Origin: a virus
UHGV virus genome: UHGV-0150949
Strand: one strand, 5' to 3'
DNA length: 31,654 bases
Below, piece after piece: positions 3,268 to 31,276 of the stretch. The notes beneath the pieces are model-generated. The model saw nothing but the letters and a program-made list of their open reading frames with translations, had not been told where the DNA came from and did no database searches. The position numbers were made by a program, and so were the translations under genes. The stretch's first letter is position 1. The number at the start of each line of letters is the position of its first letter.

Positions 3268-3575
3268 AAATAATATTTGGTACGCTCAGAAATAATAGTT
3301 TGGTACACATCTGGTACACAATATCACATGGACAACAGCGCACAGTAAACAACTATATTTGACGTTCGTAGACATACTCAGGTGAAAAAATGGTTGTTTT
3401 TCGAGTTATAACAGACAGTTAATTAACTACAGTGGACAATGCTAGACAATGACAGACACAGATAAACAACCTACCTTCCTCTTTCACGATTACACGCACC
3501 CAGCCTGAGAACAGCCATGAGTAAGGGTTTCATGGTTTATGATTTTAATTTGGTACACAATTTGGTACGCATCGC
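3268..3575. other. putative attP region with integrase arm-type repeats
   Basis: Five direct copies of TTGGTAC(A/G)C at about 3276-3285, 3299-3309, 3311-3320, 3549-3560 and 3561-3570, flanking an AT-rich roughly 230-bp core directly upstream of int. No tRNA-like core recognised. Confidence 0.5.
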
Positions 3576-4106
3576 AATTTTCACATTACTTGGCAGTCAT
3601 AAAACTCAACATAACGCGCTTCGTTGATGATGTACGTGATCACCAAAAATATCGCATCCGGACTAGTTCCATCTTCATGTGTAGGTATCTGTTCATGCCT
3701 ACCTGTATGCAAACCAGTAATAAGCCATTACAGGGTGATAGTGATGCATCAACTACGATAAATGCAGAGACATGCTGCAGTGGTGGGCGGACTGGATTGA
3801 TGAAAAGGTGGGGTAATGCCACCCATCACACCACCACGCCATCCTGCAGCGCGCTGTTGATGAAGTACGTAACACGCCACATCACCTCCACCTCTTCCGC
3901 CGCCTCCACTTCGATCGCTTCACCATCATCCGTGATTAATGCCCTTCCCATCACTCTGGCAAATTGCGTTCTGCCGCCGGACAAAATCAGCAGAACATGA
4001 TTCTGAACCAGCCTGGTGCACGGCTGGGACGGAAGTCGCTGTCGTTCTCAAAATCGGTGGAGCTGCATGACAAAGTCATCGGGCATTATCTGAATATAAA
4101 ACACTA

Positions 4107-25405: not shown

Positions 25406-25692
25406 GACTTAATCTTCCCCTCCTTCAGCAGTATCGCCTGCGTCCTGATCACGCCTTCGAGGTGGTAAAGTCTGGCGTCTTTGTTGTCGAGAATCCGGGT
25501 GCGTCGGTCGATCTCCGCGTGGCAGTCACTACAAGCCCATGCGCCGATCAGGTCGTCAGGCTTCATTCCCGTTCCGCAAATTCCAGCCATCCGGTAATGT
25601 GCCAGAACTGTGGTTTCAGGATTGCCATTGCATACGCCGTAAATACGTACCTGGCATTCTCTTCCGCGCGCTTCTTTGCGTAGGTTAGCCAT
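25402..25692 (-). CDS. YbcO-like Cys-rich nin-region protein (DUF1364-type)
   Basis: 96 aa. Resembles DLP12 YbcO as recalled (RGRECQVRIYGVCNGNPETTVLAHYR...CSDCHAEIDRR). Confidence 0.75.
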   Translation of the reverse strand: MANLRKEARGRECQVRIYGVCNGNPETTVLAHYRMAGICGTGMKPDDLIGAWACSDCHAEIDRRTRILDNKDARLYHLEGVIRTQAILLKEGKIKS

Positions 25693-26414
25693 TAAGCAGC
25701 CTCCCCTGTTACTTTCAGCATTCCGTTATCGAGCAGCTTTCTGGTCAGCCACTGTTGACCACGCCCGGTGATTTTTGTGGTGAACGATATCTGTATTCCG
25801 TGATTTGTGTTGACCGCTGTTTCTTTCACTGTGAAATAGCCGCGATCCATATATTCCTGCATTGGCACATTGCGCCGGGAACCTGAAGCAATAAGGATTT
25901 TGTGATCGCGCATCCACGCAAACAGTTTGTTTGGACCAATTCCAACAACCTTTGCATAGTTTCCAATCAAAATTCCGCTGGCCTCGCCAACGCGATCGGC
26001 AAACTCAACTTTAGGTGCGGCAATTGCGAGCTGGTTTTCCAGTTGCATTTTCTGCTCAGCAAGATCAGCAGCAAGGCGCAACGCTTCTGGTAGCGTTTTG
26101 GGGATATTAACCGCAGTTTCTTCAAGCTCTCGCCAACGGTCAACAAGACGAGCGGTGAATTCCGGCGACAACTGGGCTACAACGACAATACTGTCTCGCT
26201 TTCCTTGTTCGCCTTCGAATGCATACACACAAAAACTTTGATTTAAGCCTAACCCATTGATTCTTCCACAATCCTCAATTTGAGGAAGCCGGATAACACC
26301 ATTCTTAGCCAGCGTTTCGATGGTACGTTTCACATTGTCATGACGCTTACCCACCAACTCAGCGATTTCAATGCTTGTCATTTTGATGGCATTGCCATTT
26401 ATTAACTCATTCAT
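25692..26414 (-). CDS. phage regulatory protein: Rha-like N-terminus with antirepressor KilAC-type C-terminus
   Basis: 240 aa. N-terminus TSIEIAELVGKRHDNVKRTIETL is Rha-family-like. C-terminal half resembles KilAC/Ant domains. Confidence 0.75.
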   Translation of the reverse strand: MNELINGNAIKMTSIEIAELVGKRHDNVKRTIETLAKNGVIRLPQIEDCGRINGLGLNQSFCVYAFEGEQGKRDSIVVVAQLSPEFTARLVDRWRELEETAVNIPKTLPEALRLAADLAEQKMQLENQLAIAAPKVEFADRVGEASGILIGNYAKVVGIGPNKLFAWMRDHKILIASGSRRNVPMQEYMDRGYFTVKETAVNTNHGIQISFTTKITGRGQQWLTRKLLDNGMLKVTGEAA

Positions 26415-26583
26415 CGTCTTCTTCCTCGTACATTGAGCTATTCGGATCGCTCATCAGTTCTGCGCAGCAGTGCTCACACACGTGAACTTCCAGCACATGC
26501 AGCTTCTGACCGCAGTTAGCGCACGTTAAAGCCCGCTCGACGCTTTCTTTCTGGTATTGAAGGGATTGGGATGGGCTAAGCAT
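26407..26583 (-). CDS. ninF: NinF-like small zinc-ribbon protein (58 aa), not in ORF track
   Basis: My translation: [58 protein letters not shown]. CxxC...CxxCC. Overlaps neighbouring genes at both ends. Confidence 0.65.
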   Translation of the reverse strand: MLSPSQSLQYQKESVERALTCANCGQKLHVLEVHVCEHCCAELMSDPNSSMYEEEDDE

Positions 26584-26965
26584 TATTGGCGTCCTGCATC
26601 ATGAGAAAGACAATCATGGCGGCACGGAGTGGATTGTCATATGCGACACCAACATTCGGTCCGGCATCATCAAACAAGTCCCTTGCGTTGTCTGTAGCGC
26701 ACGGCATTGAGGGATTGTCTAAAATTATGCTGATGTTGTTTTCAGTGATAATCGGCCATGCGTCTGCTGGGTTTGCGCATGGGTTAAAGGATCCGCGCTC
26801 AACCTCTACTTCAACTGCGTCTCCGTTTACAATGTCTCCCTCAAATGAGATAAACACCATCGCGCCATTCTCACCTTCTTTGTAATCCGGTGATCCGTTA
26901 TGAATGGCTTCGAATACCGCCACGTTAATTTCAAAATCACTTAACTGTGAATAATCCATTGTCAT
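26576..26965 (-). CDS. nin-region protein (NinX-like position), 129 aa
   Basis: Internal ATG (residue 13) of track ORF 26576..27001, ATGA overlap with the NinE-like stop. Name by position only. Confidence 0.55.
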
Positions 26966-27138
26966 TTCCTCGCACGATGTCTTAGCCACCGGATATCCCA
27001 CAGGTGAGCCGTGTAGTTGAAGGTTTTTACGTCAGATTCTTTTGGGATTGGCTTGCGTTTATTTCTGGAGCGTTTCGTTGGAAGGTATTTGCAGTTTTCG
27101 CAGATGATGTCGGTGATACTTCGTCGCTGTCGTCTCAT
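26962..27138 (-). CDS. ninE: NinE-like small basic protein (58 aa), not called as such in ORF track
   Basis: My translation: [62 protein letters not shown] overlap with the NinB stop. Confidence 0.65.
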
Positions 27139-27545
27139 TCGTACCTCCTGTCGGTAAATCTGACACCATGACCAATAGCCCAGGCTGTTGTGTACTCGAT
27201 AAGACTTGCCATACGCTTCACACTCATCTGCGCGCTGCTTTCGCGAATGTTGACGTATTCGCCTTCAAGCCCGGGCAAAACATCAGCTTCCTGTTTTGTT
27301 GCCACTGCATGACCGCTGATCAACAAAACCTTCCATTGTTCTGGTTTTAACCATTTGCCGCACCATTGAACCTGACGAGCGATATCCGCCAGCATCGCGT
27401 GAAATTTTGCGTTCTGGTCAAGGTTGCGCTTGTAGTCAGTAATGCGGATGGTGACTGGCTTGTCTTTATCGAGTGGTGTTGCGAGGATGGCGTTGATTGC
27501 GGCTTGCTGTTGTTGCTTAGTTCGGAGGAATATTGTTTGCTTCAT
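27135..27545 (-). CDS. ninB: NinB (Orf-family recombination mediator)
   Basis: 136 aa. Resembles lambda NinB as recalled ([30 protein letters not shown]). Confidence 0.8.
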
Positions 27546-27873
27546 CGAAATTCTTCTCTTTAATTCCAGCGGCTCTGATAGCTTTCATTACTGCAATTAC
27601 CGTTTTGTCACGCCCATCCTCATAACCCATCGCATAAGCACCTTCTTCACCATCTTTCCAAAAGTCGTCATTCGATTCTGGCCAGTCGATATCCAGTTCA
27701 ATAGCTGCTCGCGATGCCTGCCATAAAGTCCACCACTCATTTAAGGAGTGACGAATATCCATGCTTGAAAATGCGAAGTACCTATCACCATTTCTTGCCT
27801 CGGTTATCATCTCGAATGGTAATCTCAATTTTTTGGCAACGTATTCCTCAAACTGCTTTCTTGATTCGTCCAT
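27517..27873 (-). CDS. hypothetical protein, paralog A of 28331..28651
   Basis: Track ORF 27517..27885, start moved to residue 5 ATG (GGAG upstream). Shares the N-terminus MDESRKQFEE, a central W..WQASR.AIE motif and the C-terminal IRAAGIK.KE with paralog B. Confidence 0.6.
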   Translation of the reverse strand: MDESRKQFEEYVAKKLRLPFEMITEARNGDRYFAFSSMDIRHSLNEWWTLWQASRAAIELDIDWPESNDDFWKDGEEGAYAMGYEDGRDKTVIAVMKAIRAAGIKEKNFDEANNIPPN

Positions 27874-27900
27874 ATCACTCTCCATCGATGATTTTTTGGG

Positions 27901-28083
27901 TTACCAATAATATTTGATAGTCGCCATAATTATCGGTAGCAACGCGCAGACAACTGAAAACCGTAAAACAAAACCTACTCCCAATATGCGATATCCATTA
28001 TTCCAGAGAACAAAACTCATCATCAGAAGGAATCCATGAAAAATCGCGACAAGAAATAAACTACAAATAAATGCATTTACCAT
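27901..28083 (-). CDS. small hydrophobic protein (60 aa, two predicted TM segments)
   Basis: Track ORF. Strongly hydrophobic. Embedded in a co-directional gene cluster. Confidence 0.45.
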   Translation of the reverse strand: MVNAFICSLFLVAIFHGFLLMMSFVLWNNGYRILGVGFVLRFSVVCALLPIIMATIKYYW

Positions 28084-28142
28084 CGGTACTTACCACTCGC
28101 TCTTAATCCAATAAAAAAGGGTTTGCTTCACTGAACACTCCT

Positions 28143-28334
28143 TTATTTTTTATGCCTGTAACCCCATTCTTCCAGCAACCTTGCGGCGTACCACCCAAGA
28201 AACAAAGGAAAGAACATTACAATGAGATATTCCCCGCCACGGTCAATGTTCGAAATTGACCAGATTACGATGTAACCAGTGCAGGACAGGAATATTACAA
28301 ACCCCAAAAAGCTACTTCGTCGACTCATGCTCAC
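28143..28334 (-). CDS. small hydrophobic protein (63 aa, two predicted TM segments)
   Basis: Track ORF. Hydrophobic core with basic C-terminus. Start overlaps paralog B stop. Confidence 0.45.
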   Translation of the reverse strand: MSMSRRSSFLGFVIFLSCTGYIVIWSISNIDRGGEYLIVMFFPLFLGWYAARLLEEWGYRHKK

Positions 28335-28651
28335 TCCTTCACTTTGATTCCAGCAGCGCGGATGTTTTCCTCATAAGCATCCATTGCATCACCGAAGCCA
28401 TTGGAATAATCAACAGTAAACCCTTTGGCTAATGCTTCTCTGCTGTCGATAAACTTTGGCGCGGTTATTTCAATAGCTGATCGCGATGCCTGCCACGTTT
28501 GCCAGTGGCCTTGAACATCGTCCATCACGTATTGACCACCAATATTACCACTGCCAATTTCATGGTGATTTTCAGGGTAACGGATAAGGTCTGAGGATTC
28601 GCCTCCACGTCGCAACCAACTTTCTTCAAACTGCTTTCTTGATTCGTCCAT
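28331..28651 (-). CDS. hypothetical protein, paralog B of 27517..27873
   Basis: 106-aa track ORF sharing N-terminal, central and C-terminal motifs with paralog A, with patches of near-identical nucleotide sequence. Confidence 0.6.
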   Translation of the reverse strand: MDESRKQFEESWLRRGGESSDLIRYPENHHEIGSGNIGGQYVMDDVQGHWQTWQASRSAIEITAPKFIDSREALAKGFTVDYSNGFGDAMDAYEENIRAAGIKVKE

Positions 28652-28668
28652 CGATATTTACCATCAGT

Positions 28669-28875
28669 TCAACTCACAAAACGCCACGCCATTTTTGCTA
28701 CAGCGACAGGCATAACACCGATAATCACCCACAGGAAAATGCTACCGAAAAGCACACCTACCAGGTCTTTACCTTCGCCTACCAACCGGACAAAACTTCT
28801 GGCAACAACAATGAACGTCGCCACCATCCACATAGCACCGAGAATCCTCAATGCAGAGAAAATTAACTCAGCCAC
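28669..28875 (-). CDS. small hydrophobic protein (68 aa, two predicted TM segments)
   Basis: Track ORF. Likely a non-ATG start. Hydrophobic. Confidence 0.4.
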   Translation of the reverse strand: MAELIFSALRILGAMWMVATFIVVARSFVRLVGEGKDLVGVLFGSIFLWVIIGVMPVAVAKMAWRFVS

Positions 28876-28950
28876 GATTTACCCTCCCCCAAATAAAAAG
28901 GCCTGCGATTACCAGCAGGCCTGTTATTAGCTCAGTGATGTAGATGGTCA

Positions 28951-30387
28951 TCAGAATCCTCCTTTCTTCTTGGATTGCGGTTCCTCGCGTTCACGGCGGC
29001 GCATTTCAGCAGACTGTTGGTCTGTGTCATAAATAGCGCCATTTGCCTGAATGCAATACACCGTGCCGGTATTGCCATGACGATTGAGACGAAGGATTAG
29101 TTCGGTTTCACCAGGTGGAACACTGTCATCAAAAGCACCTTCACGATGGATCCCCACCCAATAATCGCAATCCTGTTCAATCTGCCCTGTATCTCGTGAG
29201 TCACTTGGTAATGGGCGTTTATTGGTTCGGCTTTCCAGTGCGCGGTTAAGCTGTGTCAGAAGCACAACAACGCAATCAAGCTCTTTGGCAAGGTTCTTCA
29301 GTCCTTTGGTGATCATGCCGTAAGCAAGGTCGTTGCGATCGGCCTTCTCAGCGGTCATTAGTGTCAGGTAATCGACCAGAATCATGCCAACACATCCTTT
29401 TTCTCGCTTGATTCGACGGCTTTCGCTGACGATTTGAGCCAGAGATAATCCCGGCGTGTCGTCGATGTAAAGCATGTCGATTTCACTCAAGCGATTGGCT
29501 GTTTCGATCGCCCTGTTGAAGTCACCATCGTAATCACCCTGATAGCCGTCATCAGCGTCATTTGTCGCCGGAAGGTAAAAAATATTCGGGTTAACACCTG
29601 ACTTCTGCCCTACCAGTTTTTCCAGTATCTGGTCACCTGGCATTTCAAGGCTGAACATCAGAGCGGGCTTTTTCTCATGCACTGCGCAGTTGATTGCCAT
29701 CTGGCTGTATAGCGTCGTTTTCCCCATCTTAGGGCGAGCGCCAATGACAAACAGAGAGCCTTTCACCAGACCTTTCGGTGACAGCATCCTGTCCAGCGAT
29801 GGGATGCCTGTGCTCATTCCTCGCTGTTCGCCTGACGGGTCAAATCGCTTCTCAAGGTCGCTAACCCAGTCTTCCATGACCTCGCCAAATGAGCGAAGGC
29901 CGCGACGCGATCCGGTTTTTGCATGGTCTGTCAGTTGCGTGAAAATCGCCTGAATAGCTTCGTACTTCTGCGTCGCAGTCATTCCGTTGCGGGAATAGAG
30001 CAATTCCGTCGCTTCAGTCATGCGGTTGATGGCGTAGCGTTCCATTGCGGTTTCGCGAACCTGCATTGCATAGGCAACGATGTTTGCGGCGCTTGGCGTG
30101 TTCTTTGCGATCTCAGCGATATAAGCAAAACCGCCAACAGACGCCGTTAACGATTTACGCTCCAGTTCATCGAAAAGCGTCAGGCCATCTACTGGCTTTT
30201 GCTCCCGGTGCATTCTGGTTATTTCTTCGAAAAGGATTTTGTGTGGTCGGCTGTAAAATGAATCAGGCTTCAGCATCGCCAGAACTTTCTGGACGCGCTC
30301 ACTGCTGTCATCATCCAGAAGCAATCCACCAATCACCGCCTGCTCTGCCTCGATGCTATGGGGCGGCGCATAAAAATTATCGGTCAT
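28951..30387 (-). CDS. replicative DNA helicase, DnaB-like (P22 gene 12 analogue)
   Basis: Track ORF 28951..30402, start at residue 6 ([18 protein letters not shown]...). Walker A GARPKMGKTT and DnaB-type N-terminal domain. Confidence 0.9.
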   Translation of the reverse strand: MTDNFYAPPHSIEAEQAVIGGLLLDDDSSERVQKVLAMLKPDSFYSRPHKILFEEITRMHREQKPVDGLTLFDELERKSLTASVGGFAYIAEIAKNTPSAANIVAYAMQVRETAMERYAINRMTEATELLYSRNGMTATQKYEAIQAIFTQLTDHAKTGSRRGLRSFGEVMEDWVSDLEKRFDPSGEQRGMSTGIPSLDRMLSPKGLVKGSLFVIGARPKMGKTTLYSQMAINCAVHEKKPALMFSLEMPGDQILEKLVGQKSGVNPNIFYLPATNDADDGYQGDYDGDFNRAIETANRLSEIDMLYIDDTPGLSLAQIVSESRRIKREKGCVGMILVDYLTLMTAEKADRNDLAYGMITKGLKNLAKELDCVVVLLTQLNRALESRTNKRPLPSDSRDTGQIEQDCDYWVGIHREGAFDDSVPPGETELILRLNRHGNTGTVYCIQANGAIYDTDQQSAEMRRREREEPQSKKKGGF

Positions 30388-31276
30388 CGTGTTCACCCTC
30401 ACGAACTTTCAGGTAGGTATTATCGTTAAGCAGGAAATCAAATCCCTTTTTGTGCCAGACGGTTCCGCGTTGATGGTTTGGGCGCTCTTCGAACATCCAT
30501 CGGCAATTTTCGCCAACGTAGCTCAAATAATTTCTCCAGTCCTGCATCGTGAAACCATGCCCGTCAAGCTGTCGGGTTATCACTCCGGCTTTGCGCCAGA
30601 ACGTTCGGATCTGGTTTTTACGCTTGTCATTCAGTGCGCGGATTCTTGGCGCTTCAGGAAGGATTTCGTGGTAAGCATCGACAACATCCTGACAGCTAAC
30701 GGAAGGTTTTTTCTTGTCAGACTTTTTGTCTGCTGCGGTACTCTCTAATACGTCAGTATTAGAGATAATATTATTATATTCTTTATCTGTGGTAATTTGC
30801 TGGTAATCTGCTGGTACAGTATTGCTTGCAGGCATTGGTATTGCTGGCTTTGAGGTGGTAATTTGCTGGTAATCTGCTGGTACAAAATTTGACTGATAAT
30901 CGTCATATTTCTCTACCGAGAAAACTGAGAATTTACCGTGTGAAACCCAGTCAATCATGCCGAGTTTTTTGAACTTTCTAAGCAGGTACTGAACGCGATC
31001 TGGTTTGAGTCCTGTTTCAAACGCCAGAGAGTTTCTACCACCAAGTAGCTTCCCTCTGCCTACCAGAATTTCTCCTGCGTCAGTCATTACATACTCAGGC
31101 GTATGCTTTGCTTTGAGGATTAAGTGAACCCACAGATGCGCTGCTTCTGCGTCCTTGTAAAACGGCACATCCATAATTTTACGGTGCAGCAAGGCATACC
31201 CCTTACCGCTGCTTTGATGCGGTTGTTGGAGCCTTCTGGCCTCTCTGGCTTCGGCTAGATTAGATATGTTACTCAT
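30377..31276 (-). CDS. replication initiator, lambda O-like (P22 gene 18 analogue)
   Basis: 299 aa upstream of the helicase. Internal tandem peptide repeats ([10 protein letters not shown]) are encoded by DNA iterons, as in lambda O/ori. Confidence 0.8.
30791..30884. repeat. candidate origin of replication: iterons inside the O-like gene with adjacent AT-rich tract
   Basis: Two copies of a 28-bp unit GGTAATTTGCTGGTAATCTGCTGGTACA (each containing sub-repeats TGCTGGTA), with an AT-rich segment at about 30750-30790 on the downstream side in O orientation. Confidence 0.55.

Follow-up and report, generated by a model that had tools for sequence, protein, structure and literature searches.

A mosaic accessory slot between the helicase gene and ninB of a P22-like prophage, probably doubled by the fusion of two slot versions

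The nin region of lambdoid phages is tightly packed and non-essential, with ATGA overlaps between its genes and with terminators ahead of it (PMC8022706, PMC11016777). The UHGV virus genome UHGV-0150949, of 31,654 nucleotides (nt) and here called the window, represents a lambdoid prophage of the P22-like (Lederbergvirus) type, which is read on the minus strand. Its gene content includes an integrase, a P22-type portal, a Q-type antiterminator, an HNH endonuclease, a Rha/ANT antirepressor, NinX, NinB and a DnaB-type helicase, and a 299-amino-acid open reading frame (ORF) without a Pfam match occupies the position of the replication initiator (O). Between the helicase gene and ninB lie six small ORFs, two of which encode related soluble proteins (paralogs A and B); a first-pass annotation of the same DNA had proposed them as an undescribed system built from two membrane-plus-soluble modules. 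In the direction of transcription, the features of this locus are as follows.

28951..30402, minus strand: DnaB-type replicative helicase (Pfam DnaB_C, 3e-60; DnaB, 3e-31), the upstream boundary of the slot
28868..28951, minus strand: ninA ORF of 27 amino acids, P22-type
28889..28922, minus strand: predicted tR2-type intrinsic terminator inside ninA, AGGCCTGC-TGGTAATC-GCAGGCCT and then TTTTTATTT
28669..28875, minus strand: TM68, 68 amino acids, assigned to the HK620-type NinA
28331..28651, minus strand: paralog B, 106 amino acids, assigned to PF26207/phrog_343
28143..28328, minus strand: TM63, an ORF of 63 amino acids at 28143-28334, for which the ATG at 28328 behind the Shine-Dalgarno sequence AAGGAG is the more likely start (61 amino acids)
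28121..28131, minus strand: left side of the putative scar, GTGAAGCAAAC, corresponding to the first 11 nt of a ninB (V/M-K-Q-T) and preceded by AGGAG
28084..28120, minus strand: right side of the putative scar, CCTTTTTTATTGGATTAAGAGCGAGTGGTAAGTACCG, corresponding to the 3' half (T-run and leader) of a variant tR2 that is normally found before TM60
27901..28083, minus strand: TM60, an ORF of 60 amino acids with two hydrophobic segments
27517..27873, minus strand: paralog A, an ORF of 122 amino acids at 27517-27885, for which the start at 27873 behind the Shine-Dalgarno sequence GGAGAG is more likely (118 amino acids)
27135..27545, minus strand: ninB (Orf-family recombination mediator; Pfam NinB, 6e-56), the downstream boundary of the slot

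As the first-pass annotation had it, all six ORFs are co-directional on the minus strand, and its placement of the cluster at the ren/ninA position is right; the helicase and NinB flanks both have Pfam matches. Its division into small hydrophobic products and two soluble ones agrees with the hydropathy analysis, in which two hydrophobic segments are found in each of the 68-, 63- and 60-residue products, one in the 27-residue product and none in the paralogs; both paralogs are acidic, with net charges of about -7 and -8. The G+C content is 0.37-0.40 over TM60 and TM63 (27800-28200), with a dip to 0.37 at TM60, as compared with about 0.49 in the helicase gene and ninB.

The composition of the region between the terminator and ninB was surveyed in 254 IMG/VR loci, centred in turn on a paralog, TM68, TM63 and TM60, and each architecture was written from the terminator to ninB. 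The 80 paralog-centred loci have 25 different architectures, in which the paralogs are preceded by TM68, by TM60, by a DUF7301-like gene, by other genes or by none (tR2-par-ninB). TM68 occurs without any PF26207 gene (tR2-TM68-ninB) in 32 of the 71 complete loci. In 47 of 55 loci the gene directly in front of TM63 is a PF26207 gene and in 8 of 55 it is DUF7301, and therefore TM63 is not part of the 'module' that follows it. Behind TM60 there is a PF26207 gene in all of the 31 complete loci, as the very next gene in 29 of them and at up to about 300 nt downstream in the remaining two. Every upstream cassette type is paired with many N- and C-types of the paralogs (described below), and in the surveyed loci the alleles of upstream cassette and paralog do not covary. 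The obligate co-occurrence or covariation by which a toxin-antitoxin or other two-gene module would be recognised is not found in these loci, the upstream neighbour being of at least five kinds or absent. The (membrane, membrane, soluble) pattern that had been seen twice in the window describes the order of the genes only, as no such unit recurs in the survey, and the co-occurrence check across lambdoid loci shows cassettes that assort independently, as exemplified by TM68 on its own and by TM63 behind a paralog.

Other occupants of the slot are also seen. A soluble, basic DUF7301 protein of 71 amino acids is frequent, before or after the PF26207 gene (positions 1091-1306 of locus L006, and many IMG/VR loci), and a 45%-identical relative of this protein also occurs in the slot. 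Two slot cassettes of locus L266 without a Pfam match encode a 106-residue protein with an N-terminal hydrophobic segment (VADWQIPIIILAGASLVAGFILL...; 2674-2994) and an acidic 54-residue protein located between the PF26207 gene and ninB (3546-3710). The start of the 106-residue cassette (GTGGCTGACTGGCAAATTCC) follows the terminator in L018, L021, L023, L048, L049, L057, L085 and L086.

The two-fold appearance of the locus can be traced to the junction between TM63 and TM60. Behind the TM63 stop the sequence reads AGGAGTGTTCA-GTGAAGCAAAC, identical to the TM63-to-ninB junction of the single-slot loci L001 and L052. The adjoining sequence on the right, CCTTTTTTATTGGATTAAGAGCGAG.GGTAAGTACCG-ATG, is identical to the variant-terminator 3' half and leader before TM60 in loci L002, L015 and L034, where it lies downstream of GGGGCTATTTACACAGTAGCC. 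From these identities the window reads as tR2-TM68-paralog B-TM63-ninB' fused to 'tR2 variant-TM60-paralog A-ninB, and two slot versions appear to have been joined head to tail in a single illegitimate recombination event, with its one end at codon 4 of ninB and its other end in the variant terminator's T-run. The apparent two-fold pattern would then arise from the fusion of slot versions, not from a functional unit. The doubling that had suggested a repeated membrane-plus-soluble system is accounted for by this ninB/terminator scar, and the view that these are uncharacterised proteins shaped by recent recombination is supported.

The 96-nt TM63/TM60 junction was found in 56 of the 5426 complete Escherichia coli genomes, including O26 strains that make Shiga toxin (STEC); in some of its carriers DUF7301 is found in front of it instead of a paralog; this points to one old, inherited event that was followed by more recombination. 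Only 2 complete genomes cover the 1.7-kb arrangement as a whole to at least 80%, E. coli SJC33 and UPEC_U013 being examples of strains with this arrangement, and the same architecture is found in 6 of 61 TM63-centred IMG/VR loci. As compared with other PF26207 loci, two divergent copies per slot (N1-C1 and N2-C0) are rare in E. coli, being found in 2 of the 80 paralog-centred and in those 6 of 61 TM63-centred loci. The possibility that another terminator lies between TM63 and TM60 was also considered and was rejected, as only the T-run half is present, the fold is weak and no stable hairpin is formed.

Mosaic module boundaries ('linker' sequences) were reportedly described in HK97, HK022 and HK620 by Juhala et al. 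in 2000 and by Clark et al. in 2001. The present locus is similar in that short conserved gene-boundary sequences part unrelated cassettes and in that novel joints are made by illegitimate recombination. It differs in that the position of one joint can be given to the nucleotide (codon 4 of ninB to the T-run) and in that one of the cassette genes is mosaic itself.

The first of the six ORFs (MTIYITELITGLLVIAGLFIWGRVNRG), whose start overlaps the helicase stop (ATGA), matches phrog_5907 (1e-18), and its sole difference from P22 NinA (26 amino acids, MTIYITELVTGLLVIAGLFIWGRGKT) in the first 23 residues is I9V. It has the properties of P22-type NinA, being an ORF of about 26 amino acids that overlaps the stop of a replication gene and has a tR2-like terminator within it. 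The predicted terminator takes up two-thirds of the ORF; its stem has 8 pairs, of which 6 are G-C, in the consensus scan, the hairpin is also present in the centroid fold, and the G+C-rich hairpin with its U-run lies at the replication/nin boundary. The records of P22 and mEp235 annotate a terminator at the same site, and the HK75 and HK620 matches are likewise underlain by terminator features. Judged from its sequence, the 27-residue 'peptide', previously counted as a membrane member of the system, is instead P22 ninA overlying a tR2-type intrinsic terminator. At the start of the P22 nin region the ORF likewise overlaps the stop of the helicase gene (gene 12), and the GGCCTGC...GCAGGCC hairpin and the T-run that it contains are the same as here. 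The difference is that in P22 ninA is followed directly by ninB (the slot is empty), whereas here about 1.3 kb of cassettes lie between them. It is to be noted that the ORFs of the P22 type and of the HK620 type are unrelated, although both go by the name ninA.

In the surveyed loci an identical ninA/terminator element of about 70 nt is found behind ren, P or the helicase gene, and on its 3' side are TM68, DUF7301, TM60, the PF26207 gene or others, such that the element is a constant module linker between unrelated upstream and downstream genes. In a variant terminator (GGGGCTA-TTTACACA-GTAGCCC and a T-run) the entire hairpin is swapped and the hairpin-plus-T-run form is kept; 13 copies retain the hairpin without the ATG half of ninA; and the ninA frame is shifted by changes in the length of a G-run and by one insertion. 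The hairpin swap, the ATG-less copies and the frame shifts favour selection on the terminator over selection on the peptide. The insertion, of 1 nt, is in the element of locus L051 and breaks the ninA frame, not the hairpin. One IMG/VR copy has a tandem duplication of GGCCTGCTGGTAATCGCA inside the terminator hairpin.

TM68 directly follows the terminator and begins with a GTG behind GGGGGAGGG. It matches phrog_1165 over residues 1-68 of 68 (2e-37), and in tblastn searches it is 98.5% identical to HK75, HK629 and HK630 sequences and 56% identical to HK620 ninA, with matches in 107 phage records; the match in HK630 is underlain by a feature named 'NinA protein'. By these matches TM68 is the HK620-type NinA, as a full-length member of phrog_1165. 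HK620 ninA/phrog_1165 is also found in HK75, HK629, HK630, HK022, mEp235 and Stx2a phages, in the same place after the terminator, and there is no structural difference between the HK620 gene and TM68. No functional study of the HK620-type NinA was found in the literature searches.

For TM63 (product MSRRSS...RHKK), with the ATG at 28328 as the more likely start, the final codons of paralog B (K-E) provide the Shine-Dalgarno sequence. Comparison with a 72%-identical homolog (P0269 in locus L264) gives a ratio of nonsynonymous to synonymous substitution rates (dN/dS) of 0.19, with dS 1.0, which clearly points to purifying selection and to a real, unannotated gene. For TM60 the ratio is 0.85 on 16 differences, its homologs among 5.8 billion proteins are all at least 80% identical, and the ORF is open in 70 of 70 copies; TM60 is probably a gene, its coding being unproven. 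The polymorphism of TM63 and TM60 within the population is too sparse to judge coding, and the divergent homologs decide the matter for TM63, not for TM60. Neither ORF is called by the Prokaryotic Genome Annotation Pipeline (PGAP, RefSeq) in three E. coli records (L005-L007). In L264 (2267-2587) the TM63 homolog lies directly behind a DnaB helicase gene, without a paralog; about 100 nt past it, at the contig end, is an ORF that starts like ninA (MTAYLTECIVGL), and here the miniprotein is upstream of the terminator element, not downstream.

Paralogs A and B are 34% identical (BLASTP, E 4e-10). Their DNA agrees in all of the first 26 nt and, at the WQASR.AIE core, in 26 of the 27 nt of a patch (TGGCAGGCATCGCGA.CAGCTATTGAA), the tail (GCTGGAAT.AAAG.GAAG) is common to both, and the stretches between these patches have diverged; two soluble paralogs with near-identical DNA patches are thus indeed present, as had been noted. 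Both match the phrog_343 profile (paralog A, 6e-31; paralog B, 3e-30). A protein 98% identical to paralog A (116/118) has the RefSeq name 'phiTE_015 family protein', close homologs of the paralogs carry a precomputed PF26207 (Phage_phiTE_015) assignment, and phiTE_015 itself matches a profile led by paralog B (3e-26). The Pfam copy that was scanned had no PF26207 model, which explains the empty hmmscan results for the paralogs and for 98 family members. In both paralogs the family signature is seen, consisting of SR.QFE.W, then W.(A/T)WQASRAAIE and then IRAAGIKVK, and residues F8, E9, W50, W53, A55, S56, R57, G101 and K105, invariant or nearly so in the 24- and 98-member alignments, are present in both. 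These matches assign both proteins to Pfam PF26207 (phrog_343).

PF26207 has 570 clusters at 50% identity in the profile search, and its members, from temperate and virulent phages, include Sf6 gene 48, 933W L0091, VT2-Sakai H0101 and phiTE_015. When 104 unique PF26207 sequences are split at WQASR, at least 10 types of N-half and at least 7 types of C-half are found in 23 combinations, with paralog B being N1-C1 and paralog A being N2-C0. The PF26207 gene itself is thus mosaic, shuffled around its internal conserved patch; the DNA patches that are identical between the paralogs are the crossover points, and the 5' end and the tail serve as cassette boundaries. In paralog B the tail (28331-28345; ...RAAGIKVKE, encoded by ...AAA GTG AAG GAG TGA) doubles as the Shine-Dalgarno sequence of the next gene plus the stop. 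The otherwise unrelated P22 eaD (24906-25499 of L263) ends with ...TRAGIKVKGE, and it is possible that the PF26207 tail may be a portable 3' linker common to several early-gene families. Full-length homology of the paralogs to P22 EaD, suggested by the annotators of phage Gally, was considered and was rejected, as no P22 ORF is matched by the family profile at E <=10; by eye, a likeness to the paralog tail is seen only in the final ~40 residues of EaD (...AGFSYGQ...TRAGIKVKGE), and the phrog_16785 match is confined to the C-terminal part. A lambda Ren query taken from L006 finds no match in the window.

The AlphaFold2 model of paralog B, calculated from 98 sequences, has a predicted local distance difference test (pLDDT) score of 93.6 and a predicted template modelling (pTM) score of 0.77, and that of paralog A, calculated from 24 sequences, has a pLDDT of only 66. 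The predicted fold of paralog B is a small alpha/beta fold, in which the regular elements are the conserved N-terminal helix, the WQASR helix and a C-terminal helix and strand. No solved structural neighbour of this model was found, the matches in BFVD being uncharacterised phage proteins only, and a sequence-profile search of the PDB with the PF26207 family gave no matches. The literature searches found no functional study of PF26207/phiTE_015 or of nin-region membrane proteins.

Four distant PF26207 contexts were also examined, and the flanking genes there encode soluble proteins; tandem PF26207 paralogs are found there too. In phiTE, a virulent phage of the Vequintavirinae, the phiTE_015 gene adjoins a Lar-type restriction-alleviation gene, and the record notes similarity of phiTE_015 to D3 Orf41 and of a nearby gene to P22 NinX. 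A Lar-type gene (PF14354) is within a few genes of the PF26207 gene in two distant phages, phiTE (L274, 8969-10665; 2e-11) and L270 (1633-2917; 6e-6, which is under the gathering score), and a NinX-related gene is nearby in both, by a PF10765 match in L270 and by the record note in phiTE. By weak guilt-by-association, these neighbours hint at counter-defence for PF26207. The PF26207 protein P0135 (L270, 2501-2917) and the members with the N0 half-type have an N-terminal extension of about 36 amino acids with CxxCxxTG...CDC, which is zinc-ribbon-like; the phrog_343 profile includes this extension, and the paralogs align from profile position 36. In the window, the Rha/ANT-type antirepressor gene and the NinX homolog (25692-26414 and 26576-27001) also belong to the nin region, which is ordinary for P22-like phages.

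Taken together, we consider it likely (with a probability of roughly 0.7) that the locus is a hypervariable accessory slot in the nin region of a P22-like/lambdoid prophage, holding independent cassettes rather than a coordinated system, doubled by slot fusion and expressed as delayed-early genes. The slot is part of the rightward early operon and is bounded by the tR2-type terminator in the ninA ORF and by ninB, and its small cassettes pass from phage to phage independently of one another, through recombination at short conserved linkers. These linkers are seen at three places: the ninA/terminator element; the PF26207 gene, with its conserved 5' 26 nt, WQASRAAIE core and GIKVKE tail; and ninB. 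The genes would be transcribed only once RNA polymerase is taken past the terminator by the antiterminator of the phage, and translation would proceed by coupling, through ATGA overlaps and through the Shine-Dalgarno sequence in the last codons of paralog B; the tail of paralog A overlaps the start of ninB. A consensus-match scan of 27000-29200 gave no sigma-70-like site on the coding strand, and the lack of a predicted internal promoter would make a moron expressed in the lysogen less probable. The only sigma-70-like site in this range is on the plus strand at 27901-27930, antisense inside TM60 (TTACCA, 18 nt, CATAAT; 9/12), and it is probably due to chance, as the count is below the shuffle expectation.

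With regard to function, it is possible that each product acts alone. The PF26207 proteins, small, acidic, cytoplasmic alpha/beta proteins in which a conserved core carries two variable halves that can be swapped, might most plausibly bind a target of the host or of a rival phage early in infection, for counter-defence or for taking over the host. TM68 and TM63, together with TM60 in case it is expressed, might most plausibly be inner-membrane miniproteins that modulate a membrane process at this stage, for which exclusion of superinfecting DNA, control of a membrane protease and lysis timing are candidates. Tiny inner-membrane proteins that are encoded among early or accessory genes include T4 Imm and Sp and P22 SieA and SieB. 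The likeness of the miniproteins to these is a functional analogy only, and the cluster differs from them in having neither sequence similarity nor a visible dedicated promoter. Pfam, NCBIfam and PADLOC scans of all six products at E <=1 gave nothing beyond chance-level matches and thus no tie to known families of exclusion, abortive-infection or toxin-antitoxin proteins, and an Rfam scan of 26900-29300 gave a chance match only. A bolder version of this proposal, which we regard as rather improbable, is that PF26207 is a large class of modular early proteins in which swappable halves on a conserved core set the specificity for a host defence or a rival phage, that two alleles broaden this range and that the miniproteins are early exclusion or membrane-modulating factors.

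Several points weigh against the slot interpretation or limit it. A consensus scan would miss weak or activator-dependent promoters, and the low G+C content over TM63 and TM60 is moron-like. A functional pairing is possible for TM60 and TM63, both of them young cassettes of low diversity; no complete locus has TM60 without a PF26207 gene behind it, and TM63 has one in front of it in 47 of 55 loci. Linkage to the paralog by descent is here the simpler reading. The terminator is predicted in this phage, and ninA may be translated: a Shine-Dalgarno sequence before its ATG is supplied by every kind of upstream gene, and 8 of the 16 variant codons in its first ten codons, as counted from the variant sequences, are synonymous. 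The functional part of the proposal is guesswork. For ninA, the excess of synonymous variants and the ever-present Shine-Dalgarno sequence also argue against the unlikely, though not negligible, case that TM60, and ninA as a peptide, are spurious frames across T-rich linker and terminator DNA. This case would be in agreement with the high dN/dS of TM60, with polymorphism over all of its codon positions, with the lack of homologs below 80% identity, of a PHROG and of a RefSeq call, and, for ninA, with a hairpin swap that alters the peptide, with the 13 copies without the ATG half and with the frameshifts in the G-run and in L051. Against it, the TM60 frame is unbroken in each of the 70 copies, the hydrophobicity is preserved by its substitutions and a GAGGGG/GAGTGG Shine-Dalgarno sequence is located 9 nt upstream; TM63, by contrast, is clearly under purifying selection.

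It is very unlikely that the six ORFs make up an undescribed system of two membrane-plus-soluble modules for defence, for exclusion or of the toxin-antitoxin type. Such a system would fit the hydrophobic miniproteins that adjoin soluble acidic proteins, the translational coupling of paralog B to TM63, the paralog that follows TM60 in all complete loci (directly in 29 of 31) and precedes TM63 in 47 of 55, and the low G+C content over TM63 and TM60, but its first 'membrane' member is the ninA/terminator element, TM68 stands alone in 32 of 71 loci, and paralogs are found without a membrane neighbour or with soluble ones. Membrane-protein neighbours are also absent at the distant PF26207 genes examined, the divergent TM63 homolog lies right behind the helicase gene without a paralog, alleles do not covary, the doubling is explained by the scar, and neither a PADLOC match nor a predicted internal promoter is found for the cluster. 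Neither architecture nor covariation, scar or promoter evidence therefore supports the two-module system of the first-pass annotation. It also seems highly improbable that the PF26207 proteins are replication or recombination accessory factors that work with NinB/Orf or with the helicase. The lambdoid PF26207 gene abuts or overlaps ninB, distant members lie in early clusters of small nin-like genes (NinX homologs) and a DNA polymerase gene is about 2 kb away in phiTE; however, the slot position alone accounts for the adjacency to ninB, many phages with the same ninB have no PF26207 gene (P22 and the tR2-TM68-ninB loci), no called NinB gene is beside PF26207 at the distant loci examined, and the PF26207 protein is acidic and without a recognisable nucleic-acid-binding motif.

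The locus thus shows a new arrangement of something already known from lambdoid phages, the mosaic accessory slot in the nin region, and nothing at it points to a new multi-gene defence system. For annotation, the 27-residue ORF can be read as ninA with a predicted terminator, the 68-residue ORF as the HK620-type NinA, the paralogs as PF26207 members and TM63 as a gene that is under purifying selection and is uncalled in the three E. coli records. The most useful by-products are the scar, TM63 as a real gene and PF26207 as a large modular family without a solved structural relative. For phage evolution, the locus offers a nucleotide-resolution example of illegitimate recombination that stacks two alleles of an accessory slot, together with a small gene that is shuffled in its own right around an internal conserved patch. 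PF26207, being large, present in temperate and virulent phages and having a confident model with no structural relative, is a reasonable target for the discovery of function.

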